In this document: positions 3,262 to 20,590 of the stretch, one piece after another
How the letters are laid out: each line of letters starts with the position of its first letter
How positions within the stretch are numbered: the stretch's first letter is position 1
Assembly (NCBI GenBank): GCA_963772445.1
Contig: CAVYXK010000001.1
Coordinates: 977,721-1,017,720, forward strand
DNA: 40,000 bases
Direction: 5' to 3'
Source: an uncultured Pseudomonadota bacterium
Lineage (GTDB): Bacteria > Pseudomonadota > Alphaproteobacteria > Acetobacterales > Acetobacteraceae
Made by a program: the position numbers and the translations under genes
The notes under the pieces: generated by a model
What the model saw: the letters and a program-made list of their open reading frames with translations, nothing else
Told to the model about the DNA's origin: nothing
Database searches by the model: none

Positions 3262-3282
3262 ACCACGTCACGAGATTGGGCG

Positions 3283-3837
3283 ATGCGGCCGATCGCCCTG
3301 GATGCGCCGATGTCACTTTACGCCAGCCTGGTATTCGAGCAGTCCTATGGCGGTGTGGAAGGCGACAGCGCCTCCTCGGCCGAGCTGAGTGCCTTGCTAT
3401 CGGCGCTCGCGGAGATGCCGCTGCGCCAGGACCTGGCGGTGACAGGCTCGGTCAATCAACACGGCATGGTGCAGGCGATCGGCGGGGTGAACGAGAAGAT
3501 CGAGGGTTTCTTCGATGTCTGTGCCGGTAGCGGGCTGACCGGCTCGCAGGGCGTGCTGATCCCGGTAGCGAACGTGCAGCACCTGATGCTGCGTTCGGAC
3601 GTGGTTGATGCCTGCGCCGCGGGCCGCTTCGCGATCTATCCGGTGCAGACGATCGACCAGGGCATTGCGCTACTGACGGGCCAGCCGGCCGGCGAGCGGG
3701 GCGGCGATGGAAGCTACCCGGCAAGCTCGGTGAACCGGTTGGTGGAAGAACGGCTGAAGCAGTTTGCCAAGGCGCGCAAGGAGGCAGGTGGCGGGAAGTC
3801 AGAGGCGGACGTGACAGCACGACGGCCAGTTCGGTGA
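3283..3837 (+). pseudogene. Lon-family protease, C-terminal S16 proteolytic domain only (N-terminal AAA+ part missing)
   Basis: Contains '[27 protein letters not shown]' (catalytic Ser context) and '[12 protein letters not shown]'. At 184 aa it lacks any ATPase region. It starts about 20 nt after the nrdJ stop. Confidence 0.7.
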
Positions 3838-4105
3838 ATTGCCGGCTGATCCTCGAAGTTTGTCATGGCGCAGCGGATGCGGAGACCTTGCGGGCAGCGG
3901 TCGAGTTCGCCCGATTACTCGGTCTCGACCTGCACTGCCTGTTTATCGAGGATGAGGCAGGACTGGCGCTGGCGGAGCTGCCATTCGCGCGGAAAATCCG
4001 GCTGCCTACGCACGAGTGGAGCCCGCTCAATGCGGAAACAATCGCTAGGGAGCTGCGGCAGGCGGCAAGCCAGATGCGTCGCTTGCTGGATGAGGTTCTT
4101 CGGGG
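3834..4105 (+). pseudogene. Usp-like hypothetical gene, 5' part, interrupted by the 15-kb insertion
   Basis: A GTG start overlaps the Lon stop. The reading is coherent up to '...RRLLDEVLRG', then runs into terminal-repeat sequence. The same frame resumes at 19171. Confidence 0.6.
4092..4105 (+). repeat. target-site duplication, left copy (GAGGTTCTTCGGGG)
   Basis: Identical 14-mer at 19171-19184. The first G is ambiguous with the end of the inverted repeat, so the duplication is 13-14 bp. Confidence 0.85.
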
Positions 4106-4106
4106 C

Positions 4107-4295
4107 CCCCCAGGGAGCACGTCGTCCGTCCGCATCCATAGGTTGAGCGTGGGCGAAGTCGGCTCAACCGGCCAAAACCGCATTCGGGACCGCAACCAAA
4201 TCGAAATGAGAGTAGCCGCGCCCGCGATCACCACCGCTATGGCACCGGGGCCAGCCAAGCGACGCGCTCAGTCGGCAACGCCGGTCTCGCGGTTC
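4107..4295 (+). repeat. left terminal inverted repeat (189 bp perfect; degenerate similarity continues to ~4650)
   Basis: I checked the reverse complement of 18983-19171 base by base against 4107-4295 and found them identical. Inward of that, only patchy similarity remains. Confidence 0.95.
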
Positions 4296-4910
4296 TGCGC
4301 GGGACCGCCACCAAGTCGCCCGCGCCGCCTGCGTCCCCATTGCATGTCGCCGCGCACGCAAACTGCCGATCGCTCGCCACAACGGTCAGCCGCCGCATGG
4401 CTTATCGGGACCATCGCGATCCGCCGAACCCGGTCCTGCTGTCCCTATAGGCCGGGCGGTACGGGGCGGCCCGGTCCCGGCCTACCCACGCCAGGGCCGC
4501 CAGGAGCCCCGTAGACGGCTGTAAGGCTGCCGCCGCTACCCGGGGGGGGGTCTCTCAAGGGCTTGGAAGCCGCGTGGCCTGGTGGCTGGCGGCGCGGGCC
4601 GGGAGCGCGCCCGTCCCCGTCCGCATCCATAGGTTGAGTCTTGCGACGCTGGTCCCTCGAGAAGCGTCCGCACTATGAGCCGCGTCCGCCCCTTCCCTTC
4701 TCCAAGGCCCGGCTGTGTCGAGGTCGTCCTCTCCCGCGACGCCAAGAGGGTGAACAAGGCTTTGCGTCTGGCGTAAGTGAGCGCCGCTTCCCATGCGACG
4801 CGGCGCCGCAGTCTCGCTGGTCGCGTAGACTGGCCATTCACAGGCTAGCCTGGGATTGCTGCCACTGGATTGGAACGCGGACCGCGCGCCGCGGAAGGAG
4901 AGGCTCATTG

Positions 4911-5894
4911 TTAAACGAGCTGCGCCACCGCTATCGTCTCCGCAGCGATCTGCTCCAACAGCGGAGACGTTGCGGCGAAATAGTCAGGGATCCCTAATTT
5001 CATGCAGGATCGACACAGCTTTTTCTGTCCGCGCCGCCTCTGCACTTCTTCCAGCGGGAGCTCAAGGAAATTAGCTATGACGTTGCTGCTCTGCATCGAC
5101 GAGCCGCAGCAAAGCATCACGTTACCCTTTACATCCAGGGTAACGATTTCCTCGAGCAGCGAACAGCGTTGTGATCTTTGCTCCCGCGAGGTAACTGCCA
5201 AGGCGCGGTCCAGCGGCAAAGCGAAACCTGCGAGGATTTTTTGATCCTCGGGCGTCACGCGACCCTCTGAAAAGTCGATGATCTTTTCAACCGGAAAGAA
5301 CTGCGCCAGGCAGGTGTCGAACTCGAACCCCAGCGACGTCGCAAACTTCTGCATCGGAGCGATTTCGGCAACGTTGTGAAGATAGCGGTGGTAGTACACC
5401 TGAAGTCGTGTCCTCGCGGACGTCGCCGTTCTGGCTTCGGCCAGGCGCCGCATATTCTGCTTCACATCCTCGATGTTGCCCTCGCGATGGCCGATCTCGT
5501 AGACGGCCTGGGTATATCCGGACAGGGAAACACGCAGCCAGTCGGGGTTCTCCGCGAGAAGCGCTATTGGGTCACGCAATACATTGAGGTTCGAGCTTAG
5601 CGCGCAAAACACATCACGAGACTTTATCTCGCGGATAAGCTCGGGCAGGTTGGGGTGCAACAGCGGTTCGGTCCAGTTGTAGAGGCCGACCTGTTGGACT
5701 TCGCATTCGGACAGCGCCTTATCGAGAATTCTACCCAGTAATTCTGGTTCCATCAGGGCGCGCGGCCAAGCTTTTATGTCGCCGCACTTGTTCCCGACAA
5801 CGCATGTCGGGCAACGCAAATTGCAATACGAGAATACATCAATGTAAAAGACATACTTTTTTTGGACGTCGCTCAACCGACATCTCCCTGACAA
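4911..5894 (-). CDS. radical SAM protein (casposon cargo)
   Basis: 327-aa ORF with a 'CNLRCPTC' CxxxCxxC cluster near the N-terminus and a Cys-rich C-terminal region ('VMLCCGSS...CRSCMKLG'). It is visibly more AT-rich than the flanking DNA. Confidence 0.8.
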   Translation of the reverse strand: MSGRCRLSDVQKKYVFYIDVFSYCNLRCPTCVVGNKCGDIKAWPRALMEPELLGRILDKALSECEVQQVGLYNWTEPLLHPNLPELIREIKSRDVFCALSSNLNVLRDPIALLAENPDWLRVSLSGYTQAVYEIGHREGNIEDVKQNMRRLAEARTATSARTRLQVYYHRYLHNVAEIAPMQKFATSLGFEFDTCLAQFFPVEKIIDFSEGRVTPEDQKILAGFALPLDRALAVTSREQRSQRCSLLEEIVTLDVKGNVMLCCGSSMQSSNVIANFLELPLEEVQRRRGQKKLCRSCMKLGIPDYFAATSPLLEQIAAETIAVAQLV

Positions 5895-6313
5895 AGCCGC
5901 GGAACGGCGGCTACGATAGCAGATGGCAAAGCTGCTAGGAAGGGCCAGTTTCTATGCCGGAACGCTCGCCGCCTCCACCGGTGCATCCTCCGTGAGCATC
6001 TGAAGGAGTTGCGCGACTGACGAGCGAACTTACTTGTTCTGTCTGTGGAGGGACTACATTCAGCGATCGTCAGATCCTCTGGGCGGCGCTAGTCTCGGAA
6101 GGGCAGCTCGCGCCACACAACCAGAACCAACGTCAGCGACGCCCGCAATCGCCACCACCGCCACCGCTATGGCACTGGCGCCGGCAAGCCGATGCGAGCG
6201 AATGCCACATTGTCGCCACCCATCACACCGCCCGGATCCAATGACGGCTGGCCGACGCGGCGGACCTACGGGAGGCTACGAGTTCGAGAACATCTGTGGA
6301 CGTCGGCCCACTC

Positions 6314-7066
6314 TCACGCCTTGCGCGCATAGACCACCACCCGCTGCCCGCGCCGGAACTGCTCGTAGTCGTCCGGGGGCGCCGGCAGCACCTGGACAGT
6401 GCCAAACCCGAAGTTGCGCAGCAGGAAAAGCAACGCGTTCAGCGATGGCACCAGAGCGATGTCGGTCGAGCCGCCCTCGCGGTGGTGGGAGTAGTCGGGA
6501 GTCAGGCCGAATACCCCCTCGATCGGGCGCATGTTCTCGTAATGCCCATCCTCGAGCCGGCCCGAGACGTCGTAAGGGAAAACCTGCGTCTCGATCAGCA
6601 GATGCTTACGACACATCTGGCCGGCGAGTCGAAGGGTATGGATAGGGTCTTCGAGATGATAGATGAGCCCATACAACAACACGAAGTCGAACACCTGCTC
6701 CGGGTCGAACGGCATCGTTTGCAGGTCGGCCTGTATGTATTCGACGTTCGTGACGCCCAGCACGTCAGTGACGAGGCGGGCAGCATCGAGGCTGGTGTCC
6801 CTCCACTCATAGCCGCGCACACTCCGGAAGTGGCGGGCCAACTCCACGGTGTAGTATCCCTCGTGCGAGCCGAAGTCGGCCGCCGTCAATGTCTCGGGGC
6901 GCTCCACCTGCTCGGCGACAATCTGAGCCAGCTTGACGCGACGGGAGACGTGGATGGGAAGCACGTCCGCCGGCACGTTGGTCCCGGTGCGGGTGCCGTC
7001 AGGTAGATCGAATTCGTAGAACCAAGTCCGTCCCTTCACCTTCTGAAGCTTTGACGCGAACTCCAT
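6314..7066 (-). CDS. class I SAM-dependent methyltransferase (casposon cargo)
   Basis: 250-aa ORF with a Rossmann-type pattern: 'AADFGSHEGYYTVELARH', 'DFVLLYGLIYHLEDP'. It is co-oriented with the radical SAM gene. Confidence 0.7.
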   Translation of the reverse strand: MEFASKLQKVKGRTWFYEFDLPDGTRTGTNVPADVLPIHVSRRVKLAQIVAEQVERPETLTAADFGSHEGYYTVELARHFRSVRGYEWRDTSLDAARLVTDVLGVTNVEYIQADLQTMPFDPEQVFDFVLLYGLIYHLEDPIHTLRLAGQMCRKHLLIETQVFPYDVSGRLEDGHYENMRPIEGVFGLTPDYSHHREGGSTDIALVPSLNALLFLLRNFGFGTVQVLPAPPDDYEQFRRGQRVVVYARKA

Positions 7067-7083
7067 GCAAGTCCCTCCGACAA

Positions 7084-7396
7084 CTATGGTGCCACATAGC
7101 GCGGACGTAGCGCCAGGAGCGGCTTCTCGACCGTGTGGAGTAGCAGCAGGCCGAGCCCAAGCGCAATCGGAACGGCCACCAGTGACTCAGCCCATCCAGA
7201 GCCAAATGCGATAGCCCTGCCACCAGTGGTGCCAGACGACAGCACGTCGCCCGATAGCACCAGGAACAGCCCGATCCCTGTGCGCCAGTGGGCCGCCAAA
7301 CAGGTAAAGTCCTTGATAGGCCAGAACCAGCAAGGTGGCGAAGCCGCGGAGCTGGTCGATTTCTGGGATGTAGCTGCGATTGGGGCTGGTGGTCAT
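7084..7396 (-). pseudogene. acyltransferase-3-family remnant (frameshifted and internally deleted)
   Basis: The N-terminal signature 'SYIPEIDQLRGFATLLVLAY' lies in one frame. 'GIGLFLVLSGDVL' and a C-terminal-like 'HTVEKPLLALR' lie in another. In total it covers only about 100 codons. Confidence 0.45.
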
Positions 7397-7735
7397 CTGG
7401 GGTTGGACCGCGCTTTCGCGACCGCCAACCATTGAGCCCGTCAGCAGCACTGCCAAGCGCTTGGATGATGTCAAGTTGTCGAACAAATTGAGGATCAGCA
7501 ACCTACAGGCTCTCTACCCACAGCTCCAGGGCTCATTTCCGACAACGTCGCACACCAGCTTATCGGACCGTGAGCGGAAAGGGGCGGATGTCGCAGAAGG
7601 GTGGAAATCGGCGGTCCAAGCATGGGCCCGGCGATGTTCCTTCCCCACGCTATGCCGCTCGGCACGGGTTAGATCGACGGCCGGCCGGGTTCCATCCCGC
7701 AGCGGAGCTTGTAGCGCTACCACGCCCCTTAGAGC

Positions 7736-9979
7736 TCATTCCTGCGGCAGGAACGGGATGAAATCAGGCATGGCTTCAAGCAGCATATCTTCGTCGATCT
7801 CCACAGCGCCGCCGTTTTCGTCCAAGATTTCAATGCGTCTATCGAAATCTGCCGGTAGTTTGCCTTCGCTCTCAGCTGAGACGGGCTGCGCACGGGGAAA
7901 GGTGACGATATACCCCTCGTTGCTGACGGTGATGTGGTTCGGATCGCGCTTTGTCCTCCATTCAAAGCTCTCCTGTCGCTCTACATCTTCCCATTTCCCG
8001 GCCAGCCAAGGCTTGTTACGATGCAAGGCAAGCCGACACCCATAGAACACGCGCACTGCGACCGGAACGGTAGAAAATAACCGCTCTTCGAGCCGGCGTT
8101 CCCTGAACTCCGCCTGACAAAGGCGTTCATACAATTCGCTCCAGGCCGCAACAAAGCGTGGCGCGGCGTCTCCGATGACGGAACGTGGCGCACCACGCGA
8201 TTTGAGCGATTCCTCCTGCTTGGAAGGGGACCAGTAGACGCCAGGCTGCACAACGAACAGATCGGGCCAAACCTTGGCGTCCCATTGCCCGAGCCCGTCT
8301 CCTATATCGAGCGACAGTGGGCGCGCGCTGTAAACGGCGTCGGTCGCCAGCATGAAAACGGCCTCGGGATCTTGTGCCAGCGCCTCAATAAGCCGCGCCC
8401 GGGTCGCCGCGGTGATCAGCCCCGCCGATACGGCGTCGTGGTAAGGCGCGCGCCCGCTGCGCTGCGCCAGCTTCCCGTACAGGCTGTTGAGCGCAAACTT
8501 CAGTGGTTCGCCCCGAGCGTCGGGTCCGAGCCCGCGGCGCAGATCGTAAAGTTCATCGACCCAATCAAACAGCCGACAATCGCATTTGCGGCGGGCGACC
8601 CACAGGTCCAGAATGGCGACTTCGGCATGCAGACATCGGCGCGCCGCCTCGATCTCGGTTGACCAGTACCAGCCCGTTCCTTGCCGCGGCCAGTACAGCC
8701 CGCCGTTCTTGCCTCGGAATGGAAGGCCGCACCAAAACCCGTCCGGATGGTGGAAACGGACCTTTGCAACGTATATTCCGTCCTCTGGCAATCGGCCTGT
8801 GCGCGGTTTGTGTTGCCATCGCGTATGTAATGGACAGGGCAGATTGCGCATCTCCGAAGGATAAGCACTGTGTATATCGTATTCGTAGATGGGTCCCTTT
8901 AATAGCCCCAGCCGTGATACCTCAAAGCGCCCCCCGTAGTAGGCGCTGTTTGCAGCGATTTCGAATTGTGGATCTCGCCGGGGTCGGCGCGGACCTCCAG
9001 AAGTTTTATGTGCCGCCGTCTCTCTTGGCGTGAGCGGGCGCTTCGGTATGCCGTGTTTCTTGAAGAGCGCTGCGGCAAGCTCCCCCGCGCCGCTCCATTC
9101 CCGCGGCCGAATTCCAACCTCAGTGCAGGTTTCGCGAAACTTCTCCATCAGCATCGCGAGATGGCGGCATTCCAGCGTGCAGTATTCCCTGATCTCGTTA
9201 GTCAGCTCTAGGAATTCCGCGCGACGGCTCTTGTTCTCAACGATCATGGCGCGCTCTTCGTCGCTGCCGATATTCCACTTAGTAATAGCACCCACAAACG
9301 AGGATTGAAAAAAGCCGAACGCTTCGTAAACAGTGCGGCACGACCGATCGATTGGCTTTCGGGTGACAGGATCGATCCGAGAGACCCGAAAATATTTTCC
9401 TGGCTGATACGTAATTGCGTAATCGCCCCAATATGTAGAGAGCGGACCATAGTTACCCTGTTTTGGATCTAATATCCTGCGTATTGTAGATCCGTTGTTC
9501 GCTCCGATGATTCCGCGCAAGATTTGGTTCGCGTCGTATCCCACAAAATAGTAGCCGACGAGGATTGGCTCGGCGGGGAGGGACAGCAGGAATTCAAGGC
9601 AGTCACGAGTGGTTAGACGCTCGCCATCGCGATGGCAGACATGGGTTTCCTCTGAATTCGCGGCGACCATAAGCAGATAGTTCTGCAGTCCCTCGTAGTC
9701 GGTTCCGCCGCCTTCCCCATCGATCGCCATGAACGGCCGCGGTGTCTTGCGAGACTGCCTTTGCTCTCGCTCTCGTTTGCGCTGTTCGGGCGTCTGTAAC
9801 GTGCGCGCCCTATGCTTGCGGCTGCGTTCGCGCTCGCGCTGCTCGGCTGTTTGCAGCCTGCGTGCTTCTTGCTTGCGTGTGCGCTCTCGCTGACGCCGAG
9901 CTTCGACGGTGCGCTCGTATTGGACGCCGCGGGCTTGTGTCATATCGGCGATGCGGCCAGCAACTTCAGGATTGATCAT
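7736..9979 (-). CDS. family B DNA polymerase (casposon replicase candidate)
   Basis: 747-aa ORF. Exo I-like 'FMAIDGEGGG'; Exo II-like 'GYYFVGYDANQIL'; motif A 'YEYDIHSAYPSEM' (DxxSxYPS); motif B 'KFALNSLYGKLAQ' (KxxxNSxYG); motif C-like 'FMLATDAVYS'. It has an N-terminal Arg/Glu/Gln-rich repeat extension. Confidence 0.8.
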   Translation of the reverse strand: MINPEVAGRIADMTQARGVQYERTVEARRQRERTRKQEARRLQTAEQRERERSRKHRARTLQTPEQRKREREQRQSRKTPRPFMAIDGEGGGTDYEGLQNYLLMVAANSEETHVCHRDGERLTTRDCLEFLLSLPAEPILVGYYFVGYDANQILRGIIGANNGSTIRRILDPKQGNYGPLSTYWGDYAITYQPGKYFRVSRIDPVTRKPIDRSCRTVYEAFGFFQSSFVGAITKWNIGSDEERAMIVENKSRRAEFLELTNEIREYCTLECRHLAMLMEKFRETCTEVGIRPREWSGAGELAAALFKKHGIPKRPLTPRETAAHKTSGGPRRPRRDPQFEIAANSAYYGGRFEVSRLGLLKGPIYEYDIHSAYPSEMRNLPCPLHTRWQHKPRTGRLPEDGIYVAKVRFHHPDGFWCGLPFRGKNGGLYWPRQGTGWYWSTEIEAARRCLHAEVAILDLWVARRKCDCRLFDWVDELYDLRRGLGPDARGEPLKFALNSLYGKLAQRSGRAPYHDAVSAGLITAATRARLIEALAQDPEAVFMLATDAVYSARPLSLDIGDGLGQWDAKVWPDLFVVQPGVYWSPSKQEESLKSRGAPRSVIGDAAPRFVAAWSELYERLCQAEFRERRLEERLFSTVPVAVRVFYGCRLALHRNKPWLAGKWEDVERQESFEWRTKRDPNHITVSNEGYIVTFPRAQPVSAESEGKLPADFDRRIEILDENGGAVEIDEDMLLEAMPDFIPFLPQE

Positions 9980-9988
9980 CTGATCCTC

Positions 9989-10390
9989 CTAAGCTGCGGC
10001 CCGTGGGCGCATGCCGGCACGGGTAGAGTAGTACAGCCGCCAAGTGGGACTATGCTGTGGGCCGGGAAAAGGATCCGGGACATCGGCGGGAACGCGATCC
10101 GGATATGCCTCGGTTACCCGCAAGAACTGATCCTGTTGCGTGATCGACAAGCTCTTGAAGGTATGGCGATCTTGTTCGTTTAGCTTGGAACGGAAATCCC
10201 CGCGCTTTTCGATTGCCCGGAGCGCTCGCCGCGCCGCCGATACCCGTCGTCTCGCTCGCCGGCGCGTTTGCGGCGTCTTTGCTCGGGTGGCGTTCGCTTG
10301 GGCGAGAGCGGCTTCCCGTTTCAGGATGGCCTTACGCAGTCGCGCGTAGCTCGCGGTGCCAGGACGATAGGGATTGCGCCCCTTAGTCAT
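9989..10390 (-). CDS. hypothetical basic protein (start chosen at MTKGRNPY)
   Basis: The ORF lies directly upstream of polB on the same strand. Its ATG overlaps the stop of the preceding ORF by 8 nt (coupled arrangement). It is Arg/Ala-rich with no recognisable motif. Confidence 0.45.
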   Translation of the reverse strand: MTKGRNPYRPGTASYARLRKAILKREAALAQANATRAKTPQTRRRARRRVSAARRALRAIEKRGDFRSKLNEQDRHTFKSLSITQQDQFLRVTEAYPDRVPADVPDPFPGPQHSPTWRLYYSTRAGMRPRAAA

Positions 10391-10925
10391 CGGGTGTGCA
10401 CCCAATGTAAACGGTGGTCTTCCCATCGCGCGTCACCCGACGGAAATGGCGTGCTTCCCACCACCACAGACCCGAGTCATCGATCCGGAAATCGGGCTCC
10501 GACGAGTACAGGATCGGGTCGAGCCGGGGACAGAACTCGGGTGTGTCGTCCGCCACCCCGAGCCGGGCATACTCGGCGGGGTATGGTAGAATCAGCTCCG
10601 GCGGCCATCCGTTCGGTGTTAACATGAACCGTGGTTGCCAACGTACTCGTTGGCCAATAGCGCCCCACAGCAGCGGCCGGCCAAGCCTAGCCAAGTCGGC
10701 GAGGCATCGGCCGACGGCGCGCTCGACGGCGGGATCGTCACCTGCCGACAAGATCAGTCCGGCTGCAAAAGTGTCTTGTTCGGCTGGCCAGCGCTCGCCC
10801 CAATCCACAAGGCTGGCGAACAGGCTCCATGACAGCTTGAGGTCGAGATCGGGGCACCGCTCGCGAAGGCGATACGCAGCATCTCGCACGGGCGAGCGAC
10901 CAAACCGCGCCGTCGTCATCAGCAC
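10383..10925 (-). CDS. hypothetical protein
   Basis: 180-aa ORF in the polB operon with non-repetitive composition. No family recognised. Confidence 0.5.
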   Translation of the reverse strand: MLMTTARFGRSPVRDAAYRLRERCPDLDLKLSWSLFASLVDWGERWPAEQDTFAAGLILSAGDDPAVERAVGRCLADLARLGRPLLWGAIGQRVRWQPRFMLTPNGWPPELILPYPAEYARLGVADDTPEFCPRLDPILYSSEPDFRIDDSGLWWWEARHFRRVTRDGKTTVYIGCTPDD

Positions 10926-11129
10926 GGGGCCACCGCCGGCCAGCGTGGTGAAGCGTGCAAGTGCGCTCGGGGGGCGTCCCGAGCCAGCAGCCCGAACTCG
11001 GCTGCACGAGCTTGCATGCCACCTGGAAATTGGTTAGAAATTTCCGAGTCACTGTCATCTCCTTGCAGCGCTCACAACGCTGCGCAATTTTCGAGCCCCG
11101 ACGCTTGCCAGGCGCCGGGGCTCATGTTT

Positions 11130-11450
11130 TCAGGTCATGTGCACCACGCGTGGGTGGTTCGGCTCGACGCTGGCGGCGAACGCGGCACCAGCGGATTGGC
11201 TGAGCGTCCTGCTGGCGCGGCGCGGCGCTTCAACCAGAGACTCGCACCGCGCCTCGGGTGGAAGTGCGCCGGCGAGGTCGCAGCCGACGGTCTCGACAGT
11301 CAGCGTGCGCAGCAGGAAGCCGGCGTACTCGGATCGCGCTGCGACGGGCAGCTTGCACTCACCGATCCACATCGAAATACGAGCGACCGAAACGCCAAGG
11401 CGCTGCGCGGCCTCTTCGATCGTCAAAAAGCGCGGGAAGTGGGCAGCCAT
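11130..11450 (-). CDS. small HTH DNA-binding protein (MerR/excisionase-like)
   Basis: N-terminus 'FLTIEEAAQRLGVSVARISMWI' is a typical helix-turn-helix. It is divergent from the 11574 gene across a relatively AT-rich 123-bp spacer. Confidence 0.6.
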   Translation of the reverse strand: MAAHFPRFLTIEEAAQRLGVSVARISMWIGECKLPVAARSEYAGFLLRTLTVETVGCDLAGALPPEARCESLVEAPRRASRTLSQSAGAAFAASVEPNHPRVVHMT

Positions 11451-11573
11451 CGGGGGTCCTCCGGCTGCCGAACGTACCCGATCCTTTATCTACACAGGTG
11501 CACTTTTGGTGGTCATTTGTAATCGACCAGTCGCGGCGGCAGGAGTAGGCTCATTGGGCAGAACGGGCAGCGC

Positions 11574-12512
11574 TTGATGGTTGTTGTGCGACGTCCCAGG
11601 AAACCCAAAAAGCTGAACGAAGCTACGCTCATTGTTCTAACCGGGATTTCACGCCGTAACCTGACGCGCTGGCGCCAGCAAGGGTTGATCCGGCCCGTAG
11701 AACCGCGCCGCGGGCGCGGGCCCGGGCGCGGCACCACGCCGCTCCAGTATGCGAACGTCGAAGTGCCGAAAATCAATCGCCTGAAAGAATTGAGGCGGGA
11801 GTTCAAGAAGGTTGTCGAGTGGCGCTGGCGTCTGTGGCTCGACGGCTACCCCGTTCGGATCGCCCCCGACCTTGCCGACACGCTCCATCGGTTCAGGACT
11901 CTGGCATCGAAAATCAAAACGCTTGACGACATCGAGACAAAGATCTCCGCTAGTATTTGGAAGCCGACGGATATGCCGCGCGGCAATCCATTGCGAGTGA
12001 TCTTTCGCAGCCTCGGTCGGAACGATCTGCGCTCGCTGACGACGATGCTCATTTGCGTCGTTCTCGGGATCCGATTGCCGCTGTTCGACGAACCGAACCC
12101 CTACCCGTTTCAGATCTTCAAGCGCGCCTTCGGATTGCCGAAAGAGTGGGAAATGCCGCCGGGTCTCTTCAACGTCTTCCCGTCCATGCATGAACAGATC
12201 CTAAATGCGCTTTCGAAGGCCACCACCGACGAATTGGAAGGGGCAAAGGCCGCATGCCGGTTCCTGTCGGGCCTTCTCGACAACCCCGAGAATTGGAGAC
12301 GCGGCGCTATTGTCGTCAGTGGTGCCCCATTACCCTGGCGGCCGATCAAGCTCGCCAGTTTGATATGGCCGTCGCCAGTCGTGCGTGCCGCGACCGTTGG
12401 CCTCATCATCCTCTTCATGCGCGGCTTCAAGTCTGCGCTCGGCGAAGAAGGCGCGGCTGCCTTCGCTTCGATCGCGAGCGAGATGAGCATCTTGTGGCCG
12501 GAGTCCACGTGA
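11574..12512 (+). CDS. hypothetical protein with N-terminal HTH
   Basis: 'ATLIVLTGISRRNLTRWRQQGLIRP' is HTH-like. 312-aa ORF immediately upstream of the Cas1-like gene. Confidence 0.55.
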   Translation: MMVVVRRPRKPKKLNEATLIVLTGISRRNLTRWRQQGLIRPVEPRRGRGPGRGTTPLQYANVEVPKINRLKELRREFKKVVEWRWRLWLDGYPVRIAPDLADTLHRFRTLASKIKTLDDIETKISASIWKPTDMPRGNPLRVIFRSLGRNDLRSLTTMLICVVLGIRLPLFDEPNPYPFQIFKRAFGLPKEWEMPPGLFNVFPSMHEQILNALSKATTDELEGAKAACRFLSGLLDNPENWRRGAIVVSGAPLPWRPIKLASLIWPSPVVRAATVGLIILFMRGFKSALGEEGAAAFASIASEMSILWPEST

Positions 12513-12595
12513 TGGACCTCTGCCGCGACCAGTTGTTCGGTCGCACCAAGCACGGCGCCTCCGGCCCGAACAATATGGAAAGCTAAGGCGCGCGC

Positions 12596-13987
12596 ATGCA
12601 CGCGGATGACACGAATTACACCGTGGTCAAGAACGGCGTGGTCGTCGTAAGCGGCACCGGCCCGGCAATCCGCGTAGATGGCAATCGGCTCGTCATTCGC
12701 GATGGTCCGCAAGAGACGCGGCCGCTCGCTCTGACGCGGGCGGAAGCGGCCCGAAGGCTACGGCACGTTATCGTTTGCGGCCACGCGGGCGGGTTCATCA
12801 CCTTCGATGCCTTGCGATGGTTGCGCGATACGGGCGTGGCGTTTTCACAGCTCGATTGGGATGGAGCCATAATCATCGCTTCCGGTCCGCGGGGCCCCGA
12901 TCGACCCGCTCTACGCCGAGCGCAAGCTCTCGTTTGCAGCGGCGTCATACCGAAAACGACCGTGGCCATCACTCGCGAAATCCTGCGAGTCAAATTGAAA
13001 GGCCAGGCTGCAATCGCCAGGCTGATGGGATCCGCGGATGCGAGCACGATGATCGACAAGCTCGCTGCGGCGATCGGGCGCGAGACGGATGGGAGCAAGG
13101 TGCTATCGGTCGAAGCTCGCGCCGCATCGATCTATTGGAAGTTGTGGAAGGACGTACCTGTCAGGTTTGCGCGCCGCAACCCCCAGCGTCTTGGGACTAA
13201 CGGCCGATGGCGCCCCGGTCGGTCCGATCTCTGGCTTACATTCGGCCCGCGAGCCTCGCTGTTGACCGGGAAACCGTTCCGAGCGACGACACCGGGGAAT
13301 GCCCTGCTCAACTACCTGTACGCGCTTTTGGAATCGGAGATGACCATCGCCCTGCTCGCCGCGGGGCTTGATCCAGGAATTGGCATGTTTCATGTCGACA
13401 TGGATGGCCGATCATCGCTAGCTCTCGACGCGATCGAGGCAGCCCGTCCCCACGTCGATTACTGGATGCTCGCGTATCTCGCCTCGTCCGCCTTCGCAAA
13501 CCGCGACTTTACCGAGCTTTCGGATGGTGAGGTTCGCCTAACACATCCGCTCACTTCTCACCTCGCCCATAGTGGGGCTCTCTGGCAAAAGGCGTGCGAG
13601 CCGATTGCGTACTGGCTCGCGCGGAGCTTCAGCCAGGCGACCGGCGTGACCGCGGTCCTGACGGACGACCGTAAGATCGTGGTGCAGCAGAGGATCCCGT
13701 CGAAGCAATTAGAACGGAAGCAGAGGCTCGATCCGCTGACACAGCTGCCGGCTTTCCGTGGCCCGGCGCGCGGCCGCCGGCCGATGCCGCTGCAAGGCGG
13801 GCTCAAGGACAGCCCAGCCCCCCTAGGGTGCTGGGAGTGCGGAAAAGCAATCCCCGGCAAGCAGATTAGGTTCTGTTCAAAAGAGTGCGCCAGAGCCTTC
13901 CCTGTCGACGAGCTATGCCGCCGCGCGGGGGGGCTAGCTGCGCCGATGTTGGCTTGGGGTGGAGACGTGGGAATTCCATCAAGCTAA
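12596..13987 (+). CDS. cas1: Cas1-family integrase (casposase candidate), no associated CRISPR array
   Basis: N-terminal beta-domain pattern: 'IRVDGNRLVIRDG...HVIVCGHAGGFITFDALRWLRDTGVAFSQLDWDG'. Helical-domain motifs: 'VEARAASIYWKLW' and 'PGNALLNYLYALLESEMTIALLAAGLDPGIGMFHVDMDGRSSLALDAIEAARPHVD', which supply the Glu, His and Asp/Glu catalytic positions. Extra C-terminal 'CWECGKAIPGKQIRFCSKEC'. Confidence 0.8.
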   Translation: MHADDTNYTVVKNGVVVVSGTGPAIRVDGNRLVIRDGPQETRPLALTRAEAARRLRHVIVCGHAGGFITFDALRWLRDTGVAFSQLDWDGAIIIASGPRGPDRPALRRAQALVCSGVIPKTTVAITREILRVKLKGQAAIARLMGSADASTMIDKLAAAIGRETDGSKVLSVEARAASIYWKLWKDVPVRFARRNPQRLGTNGRWRPGRSDLWLTFGPRASLLTGKPFRATTPGNALLNYLYALLESEMTIALLAAGLDPGIGMFHVDMDGRSSLALDAIEAARPHVDYWMLAYLASSAFANRDFTELSDGEVRLTHPLTSHLAHSGALWQKACEPIAYWLARSFSQATGVTAVLTDDRKIVVQQRIPSKQLERKQRLDPLTQLPAFRGPARGRRPMPLQGGLKDSPAPLGCWECGKAIPGKQIRFCSKECARAFPVDELCRRAGGLAAPMLAWGGDVGIPSS

Positions 13988-14033
13988 GGTGAAGGGAAGC
14001 TAAGCATGTTACTCGAATGTGTAAGGAGAAGCG

Positions 14034-17000
14034 ATGGTCGAGGATTTCCGGACGCAGATCACGCGCGAGGACATTCAAGAAGCAATCGCAGCGTTGGAAC
14101 GAGGGGAGGTCCACGAATTTGGTCCGTCGATCTTCTACGACATTCTTGAAGGCGGCCGGCGATACCCTCCTAAGGCAGTCGTCGGCCTCGCTGCGCGCCG
14201 TGTACTTGGCCGGGTACTCAGCCCACACGAATTTTCGGGAGGCGAAGCGTCTTGGGCGTTTCGATTGCTTCGCAGCCGAGGTTTCACCGTAGTGAAGAAG
14301 CTGAGGAACCGCAACATGTCTGAGCTTCCCAGAACACCACCTACCGCTCAGGTTTGGATCGAGGACACCAACACTGCTGTCCACGACCATGGCGGACTGG
14401 GGTGGGAATTCGGCACGTGCTTGTGGAGCCCATCGAGTGCCGAGGGTGGGGGCGATTGGTATTCGCTTATGCGAGAGCCAAAGCTAAATGATTTCGTTAT
14501 CCATTTCGATGGCAGTGTAATTGTCGGTTGGTCCCGGGTGGCTGGGCCGTTCCAGGAGGGGACGGAGGCACCACCAAATCCTGCCCAGTGGGCAGGGCGG
14601 CCTTCGTACTATCGGATTCCATTGACGGATTATCGGGACTTTCCCAACCAAGTCCCGCTGTCCGAGTTCATAGTTCGGCACCACGATGCGCTCACAGAAG
14701 AGCTTCGGACAGACACCCCGAAGCGATTCCCATTTATCATCTACAACGACACAATACGCCGCGCACAGGGCGCATATGTGACTCGCTGCACCCCCAAGCT
14801 GTACGAGCTAATCTGGAACGAGGTCTATCTAAACAACGAGCCTGAACCCTTCGATCCCATTGGCCGCACGTGGAGAAGGCGTCCCAGAGTTGAGGAGCGG
14901 ATTCGGAGAAAGCTGCAGATCGCCATTCCGAGTGATGAAGTACGGGGCGCGGCGCTTGCGGTCCTTGGTTGGGCAATCGAGGCGGCCGATGAGGATCGCA
15001 GCGATGCTTGGTATTTGCGCGAGACGGAGCACGGTCTCCGCCTATTGGCTGGCCGGTTATTCGCTTGCGAGCTACGCCGCTCAAGGCTCCGTGTCTCCGT
15101 TATCGGGCCGGTTCGAGATGACCTACTCGGTATGCTCGGAGCCGAGATAGAAGACGACTTCAAATGGATACCTGGAGGCGTGATCGTCGGCATGCCGGTG
15201 GACAAGGCGGAAGTGGCGCTTTCGCTACTAAAAGACGCAATGGACGCTTTTCTCGGTAGCGCGATGTCCCAAGTAAAGCGCGGCGTCAGCCCGGAAAACC
15301 ATACCCCAGAGGCGATCAACTACGTGTCGACAGTACTCGGACGCGATCTGCCTCAACCTGAACTAGGTTCCGAGCCTTCTCTTTCGGATGTTGACGCTGA
15401 CGCCGGAGAGGAGGATCTGGGCACCTCCAGAGAACCTAAAGTTCGTGGGCGAGCTCCTATCTTCGAGAACGGTCAGCGTTCAATCGCCTCTTTGATTAGC
15501 GACATCGAACGAGGGGTCATCGCGCTTCCCGATTTACAGCGCCCCTTTGTATGGGAGGACACGAAAGTACGTGACCTACTCGATTCGCTGTTCGTGGGGT
15601 TTCCGGTCGGTACGCTCGTCTTCTGGCACACTTCGGACGACAAGGATGCTCGTGCACTCGGTGCGAAGCGACCAGGCCTTCGAGCCACTACCCTTGTCAT
15701 CGACGGTCAACAGCGCCTCACGTCACTATACGCCGTGATGAAAGGGGAAGAGGTGGTTGGAAAAGATGGCGAGATGCGCAGGATCACCATCGCCTTCCGG
15801 CCACGCGACGGCCGGTTCGAGGTCGCAGACGCTGCGATTCGGCGGGATCCTGAGTTTGTACCGAGACGTCACAGATATCTGGAATGGCATCCGTCCGAAG
15901 CCTCAGATTCGTCGTGACCTGATGAACGCGCTGCGCGAGAGAGGCCGCGTCGTAGACGAGCGCTACGAAGACGCCGTCGAACGCAACCTAGACCGCGCGC
16001 ATTCCATTGCCGATTATCGTTTCCCGACCGTCGATATCCGCAGAACCGCAGCAACTGGTGAAGCAACCGAAGAAGACGTTGCAGACATATTCGTTCGCAT
16101 CAACAACCAGGGCGTGCGCCTCGGTCAGGCCGATTTTGTGCTCACGTTGCTCTCTGTCTATCACGGCGAGCTACGGGAAAGGCTTGAGGAGCGCGCGAGA
16201 GCGATGTCCGTCGGGGCAGTCGTCGGGTTGGACACGCAGCAGCTCCTGCGGGCGGTGTGCGGCGTGGCTTTCGGCCGTGCCCGCATGTCGGCGGTTTACC
16301 GGTTTCTGCGCGGCGTTGATCCAACTACGGGTGAGGCCGATCCCGAGCGACGCGTAGCTCTTTTAGATAAGCTCGATAATGCAGCTAACGACTGCATCGA
16401 GCCCACGCCGTGGCGCGATTACCTCTTACGCGTTAAGCACGCGGGCTTCGTAAGCCCAAGCCTAATTGCGTCAAAAAACGCGATCGTCAACGCTTACGCT
16501 TTTTACATTTGCGGCCGCAAGGCAGCTGTCCCGAAGCCCAAGCTCGACGGAGTCATCTCGCGGTGGGTGTTCGCATCGCTCCTCACGGCCCGTTACTCTG
16601 GAGCGTCGGAAACTGCCTTTGAGGAAGATCTTGCACGTCTGGCGCGAGTTGACGGGAGAGGCCCTGATGATTTCACGCGAGAACTTGACGGTGCTATGGC
16701 AGAGACGCTAACCGGCGATTACTGGACACAAACGCTTGTTGCGGCCCTAGAAACCCAGAGAGGGCGCGCACCAGCAGCGCTGGCATTTCGCGCAGCACAA
16801 GTCGTACTTGGGGCGCGTGCGCTTTTTTCGGACCAGCTGCTCCAAAACCTCTTGGACGAATCTCAATCGGCGGGGCGTACCGCTCGCGAGGCTCACCACC
16901 TCTTTCCGGTGAACTGGCTACGATCCCGAGGGATCATCGATCGTCGGCGTGTTAACCAAGTAGCCAACCTTGCGGACGCGGGCTGGCATGAGAACACCGT

Positions 17001-17676
17001 GATTGGTGGCCAAAGCCCGTCGGTGTATGTCGCTCGGTTACGAGATCAGCTCGGAATCGATGACGACCGATGGGGCCGAATGTGTGCTGAGCATGCGCTT
17101 CCACTCGGGTGGGAGCGGATGGATTACGACGAGTTTATTCGTCATCGTAGAACCAGGATGGCCGAGCTTATCCACGTCGCTTACCGTCAGCTCGGCGGCG
17201 AAGCGGATGCTTCGCCGCTTACACCGCCGTGGTTTTTGCCCGGTGCAGAGGAGGTCTGGCAGCGCATCGCCGAGACTGAGCGCGCGCTTCGAGCCCTGGT
17301 TCGGGAGGTGTATGCGTCAACATTCGGCGACACTGCGGCAGCGACGATTTAGGCGAAATTAGCGGAGCGAGAACGTGAGTCGCTGATGCGCGCGCTCCGC
17401 GCCCGTCCACCAGGTTCGGACCCCTTAACCGTCGTAGACTATCTGTACCTAGGCCAACTACCGCCACTGCTCTTTGCAAACGATGTCTGGCAGGAGGTTA
17501 GGTCAAAGCTGGGCAGCGAACCGGATGCCAAGCAGCGTCTCCAAGGCGCCGTTAGCCAGATTGCGCCTGTTCGAAACGAGATTGCTCACGTGCGCGAAGT
17601 CTCACCGGATAGGTTGTTGAAAGCGACGGTCGCCTGCGATGACATTCTCGCGTTGCTCGGAGGGCGATCGCGATGA
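14034..17676 (+). pseudogene. GmrSD-like type IV restriction protein (DUF262 + DUF1524-like), with N-terminal reader-like domains and C-terminal Swt1-like HEPN; decayed
   Basis: DUF262 motifs 'LPDLQRPFVWE', 'FPVGTLVFW', 'VIDGQQRLTSLYAV'. C-terminal His-Me-like 'AHHLFPVNWL'. HEPN Rx4-6H 'VRNEIAHVRE'. PUA/EVE-like segment 'DFVIHFDGSVIVGWSRVAGPF'. One frameshift near 15860 (ORFs 14034-15917 and 15757-17352 overlap). In-frame TAG at 17350-17352. Confidence 0.65.
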
Positions 17677-18538
17677 GGTTTCCTTCGGGCTCACGGGAGA
17701 TTTGCAGCGTTACGATACGTTGCGGCAAAGCCTTTCTGCGACGGGCGGTTCTGATCCTGCCCTTGGCGGCATTGCTGCCATCACAGAGCAGTCGCGCCGA
17801 CGATTTCGAACCACTATGTCTTGATGGCTTCTGCATTGGCCTACCGATAACGGCGCCTCGCTTTGAGCAAATTGCATGGATTGTCCCCCGAAAGGATTTT
17901 GCACAAGATCCCTGCACAGGGATCGGATGCCAGCCTGAAGTTGCATTCCGGGGCTATCCGCCTGCGGAACAGGTTCAACTTGCGGCCGCCTTGAGTTGGG
18001 TGTTCCACGATACCAGCGATGCGCTACCTTATAATGTCGTTACTGAAAAAATCTCTCCATACTGCGCGATTACCATTACGAATGCAATCCTTCTGCGCGC
18101 GGTATGTGGGGTGAGCGACGGTTCATTGGTGCCTACAAAAGCATTCCCAGCAACTATCTGACGGTGATCGGTCTGCGCCTTATTGGAGGTGAACTTCGTG
18201 TTTACCGGATTGCACGGCAATATCCGTATCGCAACCCGGCCGAATTGCGTGGTCTGGCGCAGGAGCTGTGGCCGGAGTTCGGGCGCTCGGTTTTGTTTGT
18301 AGATTACCTAAGCTCGAACGCACCCTATGAAGTGATGCGCCAGGGAAAAGATGGCTGGTTTGGTCGGAGCACACTGTTCAACACCTCCGACATGGCCGAC
18401 AATGCTGCAGAGTTGGTTTTAGTAGATCCTCGAACTCGGCAACTACTCCAACCAACGTCAATGCCAAGCAGCGGAGACGTAAAGCCTCTGCCGATGTCTC
18501 TCGCGGCGCAATGCGAACGGAATCTCCCGCTTCAATGA
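17673..18538 (+). pseudogene. hypothetical secreted protein, frameshifted near 18100
   Basis: N-terminal signal-like 'AVLILPLAALLPSQSSRA'. Two overlapping ORFs (17673-18161 and 18104-18538) in different frames. Confidence 0.4.
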
Positions 18539-18982
18539 TTTCGGCAGGAGTATGAGGTAGTTCATTGTTGCCATCGCGACCTCTCGTCGGGATAGAGCAG
18601 TAGGGGACTGGCTCTTCGACCGCCCCCTTATTCCACTGATCTGGACGCGTTCCCCCGCCACTCAACTCATCCAAGCGGACGCACGGGGACACGAGCGCGC
18701 TCCGTGTGCTCACAAAACCAACGGCCGTCCCGGAGCGCCGGAGCTGCTCACCAAGAGCGCCCGACAGGCGCGGATGAACCGGGAGGGAGAAGGTTCCTGG
18801 CTCCCGCTGAGCCCGCACCAGCAGCCTTCCTGGGCGTGTCGTACGGGTCGCCAGAGCACCCTACAGCCCCCCGTGGGCTCAGGCGAGCGCCTCCCCCGCG
18901 GTCACCTTCTACCCATGGGTCCCAGTCCGTCCGGGATCCCCGCAATGGGTGCGCAGGGCGACCTGGTTGCGGTCCTGACACG

Positions 18983-19171
18983 GAACCGCGAGACCGGCGT
19001 TGCCGACTGAGCGCGTCGCTTGGCTGGCCCCGGTGCCATAGCGGTGGTGATCGCGGGCGCGGCTACTCTCATTTCGATTTGGTTGCGGTCCCGAATGCGG
19101 TTTTGGCCGGTTGAGCCGACTTCGCCCACGCTCAACCTATGGATGCGGACGGACGACGTGCTCCCTGGGGG
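18983..19171 (-). repeat. right terminal inverted repeat (189 bp perfect; degenerate similarity from ~18650)
   Basis: Exact reverse complement of 4107-4295. Confidence 0.95.
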
Positions 19172-19184
19172 AGGTTCTTCGGGG
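19171..19184 (+). repeat. target-site duplication, right copy (GAGGTTCTTCGGGG)
   Basis: Identical to 4092-4105. Confidence 0.85.
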
Positions 19185-19767
19185 CGTTGGGGTCGCGAGC
19201 GAATTCGAGGTGCTGCGTGGTGATCCCGCCGCCTGCATCGCCGCAGTCTGCCAGACCAGTGATATCATCATCGTTGCAGAACCCGGTCCCCCCATTGCCC
19301 GCACCGCGTATGGGGTTACGCGTCTGCATACCGCAGCGTATGCATCAGCGGCATCGGTCCTGCTGCTCCCGGCGCGTCACAAACCCCGGCGAGGTCACGT
19401 GGTGGCGGTACTGGCGGATGCCACGGATGGGAGCCTGGAGGTGGCGTGCCGGATTGCGACGGCGGCCAATGAAGATGTGGCCATCTTGGTATCGAATGAT
19501 GGGGCGGCAAAGCGCGTGAGAGAACGTGCCCGCATCCTGTGTCTTTCACCCGAGCGGATCACGCTTCGTCCTATCCCCACCACCCGGGCGGATGATGTGC
19601 TGGTCGCGTTGGCCGGCTTGCATGAACGCCTGATCGTGATGACGCGCCCGACTGCTGCTACTGATGACGCGTCCGGCGCTTCCCGCATTTCCGCAGCGCG
19701 CGGTGTGCCGGTGCTGCTGATCGAGGCGGCCAACGAGGGGTCTGCCGCGTCTTCGGCAAATTCGTAG
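19171..19767 (+). pseudogene. Usp-like hypothetical gene, 3' part
   Basis: The frame reads 'EVLRGVGVASEFEVLRGDP...' and ends 'ARGVPVLLIEA...' with TAG at 19765-19767. It joins in frame to 3834-4105 once the insertion and one duplication copy are removed. Confidence 0.6.
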
Positions 19768-19787: not shown

Positions 19788-20590
19788 CGTGCAGCCAGCT
19801 TGCGTCAGGAAAGTCCTGGAAAGGAGGACGGATGTAGCCTGAAACCTTTCGGTGCGGTCCAGAGGGTTCAACTCCCTCCCGGTAAAGGCGCAGCCCGCCG
19901 GCCGGAAGCGAGCCTTGCACGGGTGACGGCGACGCCGCTCGTGAAGCGTAGGCAGCAGGTACCGAAGCCCGGGGTTGAGCCCCGACATCATGTTCGTGCT
20001 GGAGCCTTCGGCGTGTTGGGTCCGGGGGCAGCATCGACAGGACTGCAAATGGCGAGGTCCTGCCGATCCGGCCGGGGTCTGAGAGCCGGGCAGAGGTACG
20101 GGAGGGAACGCCAGGAAACCTGAGAGATCCCGTGCGTGCCCATGTGCAAACTGCCGGAGAGGGGCATACCGGCTGACCAAAGAGCCCAGGTCCGGAGGCG
20201 GCCCCCTGCCGCGCCGGGAGCGCTTCGGCGAACACGAAGACGGGGGAGCATGTGGAGCCCGGAACCGAATCCATAAGGGACCGGGAATGCACGCGCAGGA
20301 AGTCGTAGCGCCTTCATAGTACCTCGTGAAGTCGGGGAACCGGGACTCACCGGGACCCGATGGAGGGAAGGGAGGCGCCACGGAGAGAGAACCGTTGGCC
20401 GGAAACACGGGAGGGGACACTGAACCCCGCAAACCTGTCCACACAAGGACGACGGATAGCCGACTTGGCGAGGCGGCGGCGCGAGGTAGCGTTCATCGCT
20501 ACACGGCCGCTGGCGAAACTCTCTCGTGAAGAACCGGATGCGGGAAACCTGCTCGTCCGGGTCTGTGAGGGGTGGGGGTGGTAACATCCC
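19788..20590 (+). ncRNA. structured-RNA-like, ORF-poor region; possible 3'-truncated, ORF-less group II intron fragment
   Basis: No credible protein frame. It contains many short hairpins and purine-rich GNRA/GAAA-type loops, for example GTCCT-GGAAAGG-AGGAC, GAGGG-TTCAACT-CCCTC, 'GCCTGAAACC' and 'GCGGGAAACCTGC'. GTGCA/TTGCG near 19788-19803 resembles the GUGYG 5' end. The segment translating as 'EPDAGNLLVRVCEGWG' resembles pseudo-peptides I recall seeing just upstream of group II intron RT ORFs. No RT, domain V or domain VI was found. Confidence 0.35.

Follow-up and report, generated by a model that had tools for sequence, protein, structure and literature searches.

The 40-kb window analysed here (the whole stretch of 40,000 nucleotides from contig CAVYXK010000001.1, positions 977,721 to 1,017,720) contains a block of 15,065 bp, at 4107-19171, which is very probably an intact casposon that has recently inserted itself into a gene for a conserved hypothetical protein in an uncultured (soil) alphaproteobacterium. 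An earlier note, made from the letters alone, had described a casposon-like element with a solo Cas1 and a family-B DNA polymerase (PolB). The element is indeed a real casposon, for every feature of the superfamily that can be sought in sequence is present: a Cas1 of the casposase clade, a PolB encoded within the element, terminal inverted repeats (TIRs) with a target-site duplication, and neither a CRISPR-like array in the 40 kb nor a cas gene other than cas1 between the TIRs. It is, moreover, a member of a family-3-derived subgroup with a tectiviral replication module, a subgroup that is common but apparently undescribed.

The ends of the element are formed by two 189-bp TIR arms – the left at 4107-4295 (+), the right at 18983-19171 (-) – that match at 189/189 positions as exact reverse complements; the perfect repeats reported earlier, and the 15,065 bp given for the interior, are thereby confirmed. 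Directly abutting both arms is a 14-bp target-site duplication, AGGTTCTTCGGGGC, at 4093-4106 on the left and 19172-19185 on the right. A duplication of 13-14 bp had been noted before, and a direct repeat is present, but the string given for it was shifted by one base: GAGGTTCTTCGGGG sits at 4092-4105 and 19171-19184, leaving C4106 between its left copy and the TIR, while its right copy overlaps the last TIR base. Counting the G before it, the direct repeat extends to 15 bp (GAGGTTCTTCGGGGC) and overlaps the right TIR by that one G. The element terminus reads CCCCCAGGGAGCACG, with the end sequence CCCCCAGGGAGCACGTCGTCCGTCCGCATCCATAGGTTGA, and the terminus CCCCCAGGGAGCA of the left arm is kept in relatives. 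The TIRs had been noted as very long, but such length is not unusual: published casposons have TIRs of 25-602 bp and those of the relatives described below reach ~550-980 bp. G+C content is slightly lower in the cargo regions (56-61%) than in the flanks (63-65%).

Inside each end lies a 21-bp subterminal motif, CCGTCCGCATCCATAGGTTGA at 4126-4146 (+) with a mirrored copy at 19132-19152, that is a candidate casposase-binding site. A third copy occurs internally at 4617-4637 (+), 510 bp inside the left end. The three exact copies of the motif (CCGTCCGCATCCRTAGGTYGA) in the window compare with 0.01 expected, and the motif recurs close to the ends of two relatives, L001 and L011. The stretch that holds the internal copy, 4559-4637, is in inverted orientation 81% identical to the right end of L001 (the part that resembles it being 4559-4632). 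This region could be the remnant of an old end, or a second transposase-binding site that makes the ends asymmetric.

Evidence that the block has moved came from the gene that it disrupts. The 5′ part of this gene, which encodes a conserved hypothetical protein, occupies 3834-4106 (+) and the 3′ part 19186-19767; deletion of 4107-19185 in silico yields an intact open reading frame (ORF) of 284 aa. The restored protein has 127 homologues, annotated as Acetobacteraceae and mostly full-length (about 245-317 aa), the best of them 87% identical across 95% of its length. Two of the homologues are fragments, 99% identical copies of the two gene halves, as expected if their genomes carry the insertion. 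Two related contigs that were fetched, L018 and L019, contain the intact gene and only one copy of the duplicated sequence: both flanks of the element map contiguously on L019 (96-97% identity) and L018 (90%), and the mapped left and right flanks overlap solely across that single copy. The empty site of L019 reads CTTGCTGGATGAGGTTCTTCGGGGTGTTGGGGTCGCG, and the site that had been predicted, ...CTGGATGAGGTTCTTCGGGG[T]GTTGGGG..., is thus found uninterrupted in two related genomes, L019 differing from it by one single-nucleotide polymorphism. L018 also keeps the neighbouring genes, in the form of PRPP-synthase-like (phosphoribosyl pyrophosphate synthase-like), LonC-like, target, M50 peptidase and DUF4010 genes. 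The contiguity of the flanks, combined with the single copy of the duplicated sequence, shows the block to be an insertion that split the gene; the possibility that it is syntenic in relatives and without duplication is contradicted by the empty sites of L018 and L019. With flanks that have diverged by about 3-4%, the insertion is recent on that scale; its footprints are what cut-and-paste or copy-in transposition with a 14-bp stagger would leave. Its position inside a gene sets it apart from the bacterial casposons known at the time of a 2016 census, every one of which was intergenic.

A central issue is the affinity of the putative integrase. The 463-aa product of 12596-13987 (+) is a Cas1 homologue, as had been proposed: it matches Pfam Cas_Cas1 at 1.7e-32 and TIGR00287 above the cut-off. 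In the PDB it matches the casposase of M. mazei best (6opm, 8e-16), with CRISPR Cas1 proteins behind. BLASTP comparison with a reference set of casposases, the alignment in the supplement of Krupovic et al. 2014, gave the highest identity to AceAut-C1 (41.6%), followed by SacSpi (35%), StrAlb (31%) and NitAL212 (30%), with family 2 at 25-29%, HenMar-C1 at 28% and family 1 at 22%; CRISPR Cas1 proteins ranked below all casposases and near noise, type I-E Cas1 falling within it. In a neighbour-joining tree the protein stands beside AceAut-C1 inside the family-3 casposase clade (100% bootstrap), which there comprises the window Cas1, eight metagenomic homologues, AceAut, SacSpi, StrAlb, NitAL212 and HenMar; the casposase clade as a whole receives 84%. 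The phylogenetic comparison that the earlier note had called for, casposases versus CRISPR Cas1, thus places the protein with the casposases. The catalytic residues E248, H266, D278 and E281 are invariant across homologues. The protein ends in a CxxC...CxxxC zinc ribbon that resembles the "Cas1-Zf" of AceAut-C1, and it has no C-terminal helix-turn-helix (HTH); relatives of ~560 aa bear an extra C-terminal HTH-like domain, and the subclade of the window Cas1 is without it.

The reading of the block as part of an ordinary CRISPR locus was rejected. Neither TRF (Tandem Repeats Finder) nor a short-range direct-repeat search nor Rfam revealed a CRISPR-like array in the 40 kb, in keeping with the earlier statement, and cas1 is the sole cas gene between the TIRs. 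The companion statement that no other cas gene is visible holds for the ORFs between the TIRs; outside the element the search was not exhaustive.

The second core enzyme is a family-B polymerase of phi29/tectivirus type (747 aa, 7736-9979, -). Matches to Pfam DNA_pol_B_2 (PF03175, 5e-16) and phrog_11768 (6e-45), together with exonuclease and polymerase motifs whose catalytic residues are invariant across homologues, bear out the PolB assignment made from the motifs; with the invariant residues of Cas1 they also uphold the view that cas1 and polB are both intact. The polymerase is 30% identical (E = 1e-55) to those of Rhodococcus phage Toil, Streptomyces phage Forthebois and Microbacterium tectiviruses, and 39-43% identical to those on eight IMG/VR contigs of 11-18 kb, near full length in seven. 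On one of the eight, L022, there are also genes for a lysin, a capsid-like protein and a packaging ATPase. Fold comparison was used because a sequence search of the PDB gave no meaningful match: with an AlphaFold2 model (mean predicted local distance difference test score, pLDDT, 80) the top Foldseek matches were all phi29 polymerase (E = 1.7e-16, target template-modelling score, TM, 0.63), archaeal PolB following behind (1e-11, TM about 0.35). Among 72,556 plasmids the polymerase found no match. An identical PolB is on record for a 1.06-Mb contig and was read in a 5-kb Logan copy (run ERR10755937); exact look-ups of the Cas1 and of the truncated target-gene fragment gave no contig. Its first 80 residues (9740-9979) form a basic, arginine-rich, all-helical N-terminal extension in which the internal repeat QTxEQRxRERxRKxxAR occurs twice; this extension is kept in the casposon clade and absent from Toil, and Forthebois has a Cys-rich segment there instead.

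According to the literature, the polymerases of family-2/3 casposons lie near archaeal RNA-primed PolBs, often carry a C-terminal HTH and always stand beside an HNH gene, and published family-3 polymerases are described as closest to family 2. For comparison 80 family-2 casposon loci were taken from metagenomes. One of them, the M. mazei-like locus L067, encodes Cas1, an HTH protein and a polymerase of 897 aa that belongs to Pfam DNA_pol_B, with a His-Me/HNH-like (colicin/pyocin-DNase-like) match at the expected position that is sub-threshold (E 0.0012, 19.4 bits versus a cut-off of 27). The window PolB has no significant similarity to the L067 polymerase (BLASTP, E = 0.31), nor to the 80 loci at large (tblastn, best E = 1.1); against the polymerases of NitAL212, AceAut and HenMar the comparison is by published description, not sequence. 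No HNH or His-Me nuclease in the element was matched in Pfam, NCBIfam or PHROG, and the two conserved ORFs upstream of polB contain no HNH motif, one being without any cysteine. On these sequence comparisons the polymerase is of a tectivirus-like lineage and not of the classical casposon lineage. Both its tectivirus type and the missing HNH gene had been overlooked when the PolB was first found.

Between the two enzymes lie four genes that complete a six-gene core, PolB-o145-o180-HTH-HTH-Cas1, which relatives have in common although they do not share cargo. Directly upstream of polB is a conserved basic protein of 145 aa (9989-10426, -), our candidate for a terminal protein. It had no family match in profile searches; it is kept in L001, L003-L006 and L008-L011, and L059 and L062 have positional equivalents (137 and 133 aa) directly upstream of polB. 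There follows a conserved 180-aa protein (10383-10925, -) to which no function was assigned. The HTH proteins mentioned in the earlier note are HTH-like at both places, each on sub-threshold matches: a small excisionase/MerR-like protein at 11130-11450 (-; TIGR01764 1.1e-4, HTH_17 0.0019 and a MerR-like phrog, all below curated cut-offs) and, immediately upstream of cas1, a 312-aa protein at 11574-12512 (+) whose first 93 aa weakly match a MerR-like HTH (MerR_1, E = 0.003) and whose position and homology are kept in relatives.

Such relatives are numerous. Metagenomes hold more than 600 homologues of the Cas1 at 58-87% identity and more than 460 of the PolB, and narrow search patterns recovered 10 loci from 185,579 species-representative genomes, all in metagenome-assembled genomes (MAGs) of uncultured Alphaproteobacteria; the relatives stem from Microflora Danica MAGs. 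No viral contig with this Cas1 appeared when its alignment was run against IMG/VR, and the AceAut and M. mazei Cas1 cores likewise found no match there. Relatives share with the window element the termini CCCCCWGGGAGCA and 14-bp duplications: L003 starts CCCCCTGGGAGCACG (terminus CCCCCTGGGAGCA) and has a duplication of 13-14 bp, and L011 starts CCCCCAGGGAGCATCC (terminus CCCCCAGGGAGCA) with the 14-bp duplication ATTTCCGGCGAACG. Target choice appears loose, since the three duplicated sequences, from three sites only, have no consensus. Compared with relatives that are decaying – polB is truncated in L006, L010 and L011 and the ends of L001 are degenerate – the window copy is pristine. The inverted repeats of L011 measure 547 bp (1406-1952 / 16657-17203); those of L009 are ~980 bp long (435-1414 / 16404-17383), the outer 588 bp matching at 99%, and their outer boundary is without the CCCCC terminus.

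A different arrangement is seen in L059 (Logan SRR28211869, 16,436 bp), whose PolB and Cas1 are 61% and 62% identical to those of the window. The same 16,436-bp contig was recovered in 11 samples, and a contig assembled from a different sample begins at the very same base (L060 was also noted). Its inverted repeats, which are AT-rich, reach both contig ends exactly (1-65 versus 16372-16436), and the homologue of the casposon terminus is located 100-200 bp further in; its cargo includes ParB/RepB, a large serine recombinase and an Mrr nuclease. L059 may be a linear episomal relative, or an insertion at multiple sites that breaks assemblies. Assemblers break at long inverted repeats. For this reason, and because L001 turned out to be integrated, with degenerate ends and short flanking sequences, the size of the many 13-17-kb contigs that carry homologues is no evidence of an episome.

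Of the other readings, the one that deserves most attention holds that this is an ordinary published family-3 casposon, its PolB and gene content within known variation; we consider this unlikely, though it has substance. The Cas1 is inside the family-3 clade, the host is a bacterium, and TIR and duplication lengths are inside the published ranges. The closest published casposase, that of AceAut-C1 (41.6% over 310 aa, sister in the neighbour-joining tree), belongs to an element that resembles ours in its Cas1 C-terminal zinc finger, long TIRs (602 bp), 15-bp duplication, capsid-less state and variable cargo (PMC4046053). The order PolB, small genes, HTH, MerR-like HTH, Cas1 mirrors HenMar-C1 and NitAL212-C1: HenMar-C1 shares host class, core gene order and a MerR-like HTH beside Cas1, NitAL212-C1 has a MerR/TipA-like HTH in that place, and both parallel the 312-aa window protein. 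L059, moreover, matches the cargo reported for HypCY54-C1 (ParB/RepB, serine resolvase). Alphaproteobacterial casposons, namely HenMar-C1/C2, HypCY54-C1 and CitBat-C1, are already published (PMC4046053, PMC4779613), which qualifies the earlier remark on an alphaproteobacterial-type genome.

It is the replication module that speaks against ordinary membership. The window PolB is without significant similarity to canonical family-2 PolB, as shown by the searches above, and the nearest published Cas1 is just 42% identical. In AceAut-C1 the polymerase is a PolB-HTH of the family-2/3 lineage and an HNH gene is present, whereas the element here has a phi29/tectivirus-type PolB and no HNH, and the hosts are of different phyla; HenMar-C1 differs in that its Cas1 is only 28% identical, that it too has an HNH gene, and that its TIR and duplication measure 37 bp and 1 bp. 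The element is therefore counted as a variant and not as a plain family-3 member, since its Cas1 falls in the family-3 clade while the PolB lineage and HNH gene that mark the family were sought and are not what is found. The main caveat on this classification is that HypCY54-C1, CitBat-C1 and HenMar-C2 were set against the window subgroup by description only.

Family-1 casposons, from Thaumarchaeota, offer a further parallel: they too are capsid-less and have a PolB of protein-primed type with, upstream of polB, a small gene proposed to encode a terminal protein. Their Cas1, however, is 22% identical and of another clade, and their polymerase groups with His1/His2 viruses; the resemblance of the window PolB to L049 and L051 (presumed His1 and His2) is weak (22-27%). 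Family-1 casposons insert site-specifically into the aEF-2 gene.

Far less probable than ordinary family-3 membership is that we are dealing with a tectivirus-like provirus that uses Cas1 as its integrase and whose capsid genes are too divergent to detect. There is precedent: the Streptomyces albulus/noursei elements, initially classed as family-3 casposons, were reinterpreted as Toil-like proviruses (Yutin et al. 2018, PMC5894146), and in StrAlb-C1 the capsid protein had gone unnoticed in 2014 (PMC5894146). Like the window element, StrAlb-C1 and the Cas1-bearing Toil-like proviruses of S. noursei combine a family-3-clade Cas1 with a Toil-like polymerase (PMC4046053; PMC5894146), and they are of similar size (about 16 kb; TIR 116 bp, duplication 18 bp). 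The Streptomyces elements, regarded as viruses, encode a packaging ATPase as well as a double jelly-roll capsid protein; neither protein is detectable in the window element. Their hosts are Actinobacteria, against Alphaproteobacteria here, and StrAlb-C1 also has a listed HNH gene. Toil-like tectiviruses (Epsilon- and Deltatectivirus) and the viral contigs share the PolB lineage, including the motif C variant xTDA/G, and at 15-18 kb, the isolated ones linear, they match the element in size; a length of 15 kb and TIRs suit tectiviruses. They have no Cas1, however, but structural modules instead, and PolB is the sole shared protein.

Capsid genes were looked for in view of the Streptomyces reinterpretation. 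PHROG and Pfam gave no match to capsid, packaging or lysis families, tblastn searches of the element with proteins of Toil and L022, the capsid protein and ATPase among them, gave a best E of 0.16, and the element ORFs of >=80 aa contain no Walker A motif; PolB aside, no element protein matches any of 38 viral contigs. The closest non-casposon relatives of the PolB lie on viral contigs of 15-18 kb. Unassigned ORFs do remain, in the 480-aa N-terminal region encoded at 14034-15480 and at 17386-18538, but about 8 of the 15 kb is core plus identifiable cargo, and the unassigned regions vary between relatives. The element thus appears capsid-less as far as sequence methods tell; a very divergent capsid is conceivable. 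Least credible of all is a dead, domesticated or vertically inherited island with relic repeats, for which an apparent frameshift in a cargo gene and the decay of the four relatives named above might be cited, because the TIRs agree at every position, the duplication is perfect, both core enzymes are intact and the site is empty in a genome with 96-97% identical flanks.

If the element is the recently transposed casposon that we take it to be, a plausible course of events can be sketched. By analogy with the biochemistry of family-1 and family-2 casposases, Cas1 would bind the ends, probably through recognition of the conserved terminus CCCCCWGGGAGCA and of the subterminal motif, and the two HTH proteins would probably supply the DNA binding that other casposases have as a C-terminal HTH. 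The two target strands would then be attacked by the free 3′-OH ends at positions 14 bp apart, and repair of the gaps would create the duplication. Judging from the type of polymerase, the element would be replicated by the phi29/tectivirus-like PolB that it encodes, most likely through protein priming at the C-rich repeated termini, with either the 145-aa protein or the basic N-terminal extension of PolB itself as the candidate primer. We give this step an even chance. The identity of the two TIRs would also follow from such replication. The remainder of the element – GmrSD/HEC-05-like nuclease, radical SAM (S-adenosylmethionine) enzyme and methyltransferase – is exchangeable cargo, and in its evolution the element may have combined a casposase module of family-3 type with a replication module of tectiviral origin, but no capsid genes.

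Several observations weigh against the account of an intact, self-replicating casposon. Within the family-3 clade neighbour-joining support is weak (14-55%), and neighbour-joining was the sole tree type; the Biopython bootstraps in the window's own clade (25-55%) are implausibly low for sequences that are 65-89% identical, and only the deep 100% node was relied on. The C-terminal HTH of longer relatives is missing from this Cas1, which counts against assuming that it binds the ends on its own. Motif C of the polymerase reads ATDA and not the canonical DTD, though Toil-like enzymes vary likewise (ETDG, ATDG). For protein priming, no terminal protein is identifiable by homology, and profile-profile comparison of the 145-aa protein with viral ORFs upstream of polB gave a probability of 0.1%, some of the viral ORF picks being probably spurious. 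Just one copy of the casposon is seen within the 40-kb window. Finally, the large cargo gene, a GmrSD/HEC-05-like (DUF262) defence-type gene at 14034-17352 (+) whose ~480-aa N-terminal region (14034-15480) is without assignment, is read in two frames, 14034-15917 and 15757-17352: DUF262 positions 1-80 fall in the first and 103-196 in the second, with the switch near ...DPEFV / LYRDVTDIW... and an apparent 1-nt frameshift near 15850. This may be a homopolymer or assembly error of a long-read MAG, or a real inactivating indel and the start of decay.

Casposons are the proposed ancestors of the CRISPR adaptation machinery. To our knowledge, nearly everything learnt about them comes from the archaeal families 1 and 2, and bacterial casposons number only a handful; in the literature searched we found none that had been shown to move, and no later census or new casposon family. 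Against this background the present element offers a clean pair of filled and empty sites for a bacterial casposon, together with defined ends, a subterminal motif and a fixed 14-bp stagger that are ready for an in vitro integration assay. It provides evidence for the exchange of casposase and replication modules between casposons and tectiviruses, and its capsid-less state complements the capsid-bearing Streptomyces chimeras. No current view is overturned: since more casposon families have been explicitly predicted in the literature, and a precedent exists for the pairing of Cas1 with a Toil-like polymerase, a specialist should find the element useful rather than startling.

A bolder proposal can be entertained, tentatively and with the odds somewhat against it, namely that these elements constitute an unnamed and abundant bacterial lineage in which a family-3 casposase was combined with a tectiviral protein-primed module and which replicates as protein-capped linear DNA, some members being linear episomes (as with the 16.4-kb TIR-bounded contig that carries ParB/RepB in 11 samples) and others integrating loosely and moving defence genes between hosts. 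Were this true, the lineage would be a bacterial counterpart of Polintons, a fifth casposon family, and, among bacterial casposons, the first lineage whose recent transposition is documented by direct comparison.

The cargo bears on the last part of that proposal. Pipolins have been reported to carry defence genes. In the relatives cargo is largely defence-like (L001, L003, L059, L062) and includes a histidine-kinase-type ATPase (HATPase_c_3) with a reverse transcriptase, RES with a resolvase, SIR2 (SIR2_2) with NOV_C and DUF3800, and Mrr. The gene content suggests that these casposons act as carriers of defence genes, much as pipolins do. In the window element the remaining cargo consists of a radical SAM protein (4911-5894, -; Pfam Radical_SAM 2.2e-12, viperin-like match weak) and an S-adenosylmethionine-dependent methyltransferase (6314-7066, -; Pfam Methyltransf_11/25/23), neither present in the related elements compared, and three small ORFs of 96, 162 and 144 aa (17386-18538, +) that have no significant family matches and are not kept in relatives.

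The surroundings of the element are themselves rich in mobile DNA, the 40 kb holding the casposon, an intron and two transposases. The intron, a compact group II intron at 19869-20602 (+), is found 700 bp beyond the right end of the casposon, about 100 bp after the disrupted target gene has ended; it was recognized by Rfam matches to group-II-D1D4-6 (139.7 bits, 19869-20087) and to domains V/VI (45.1 bits, 20529-20602), and the two are only about 440 nt apart, too little to accommodate a reverse-transcriptase ORF. The intron may interrupt the M50-peptidase region; in L018 that region lies on the opposite strand. An IS110-family transposase is encoded at 34165-35301 (-; Transposase_20 1e-18 and DEDD_Tnp_IS110) and a weak DDE_Tnp_1 transposase at 36548-38479 (-). 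In L019 a different insertion sequence (rve_3) abuts the same target gene, with a group II intron reverse transcriptase nearby. Upstream of the target, at 524-3837 (372-6004 in L018), are conserved phosphoribosyltransferase/PRPP-synthase-like genes, short ribonucleotide-reductase-like fragments and a LonC-type protease; relative to L018, the Lon-like and ribonucleotide-reductase-like ORFs of this region look fragmented in the window.

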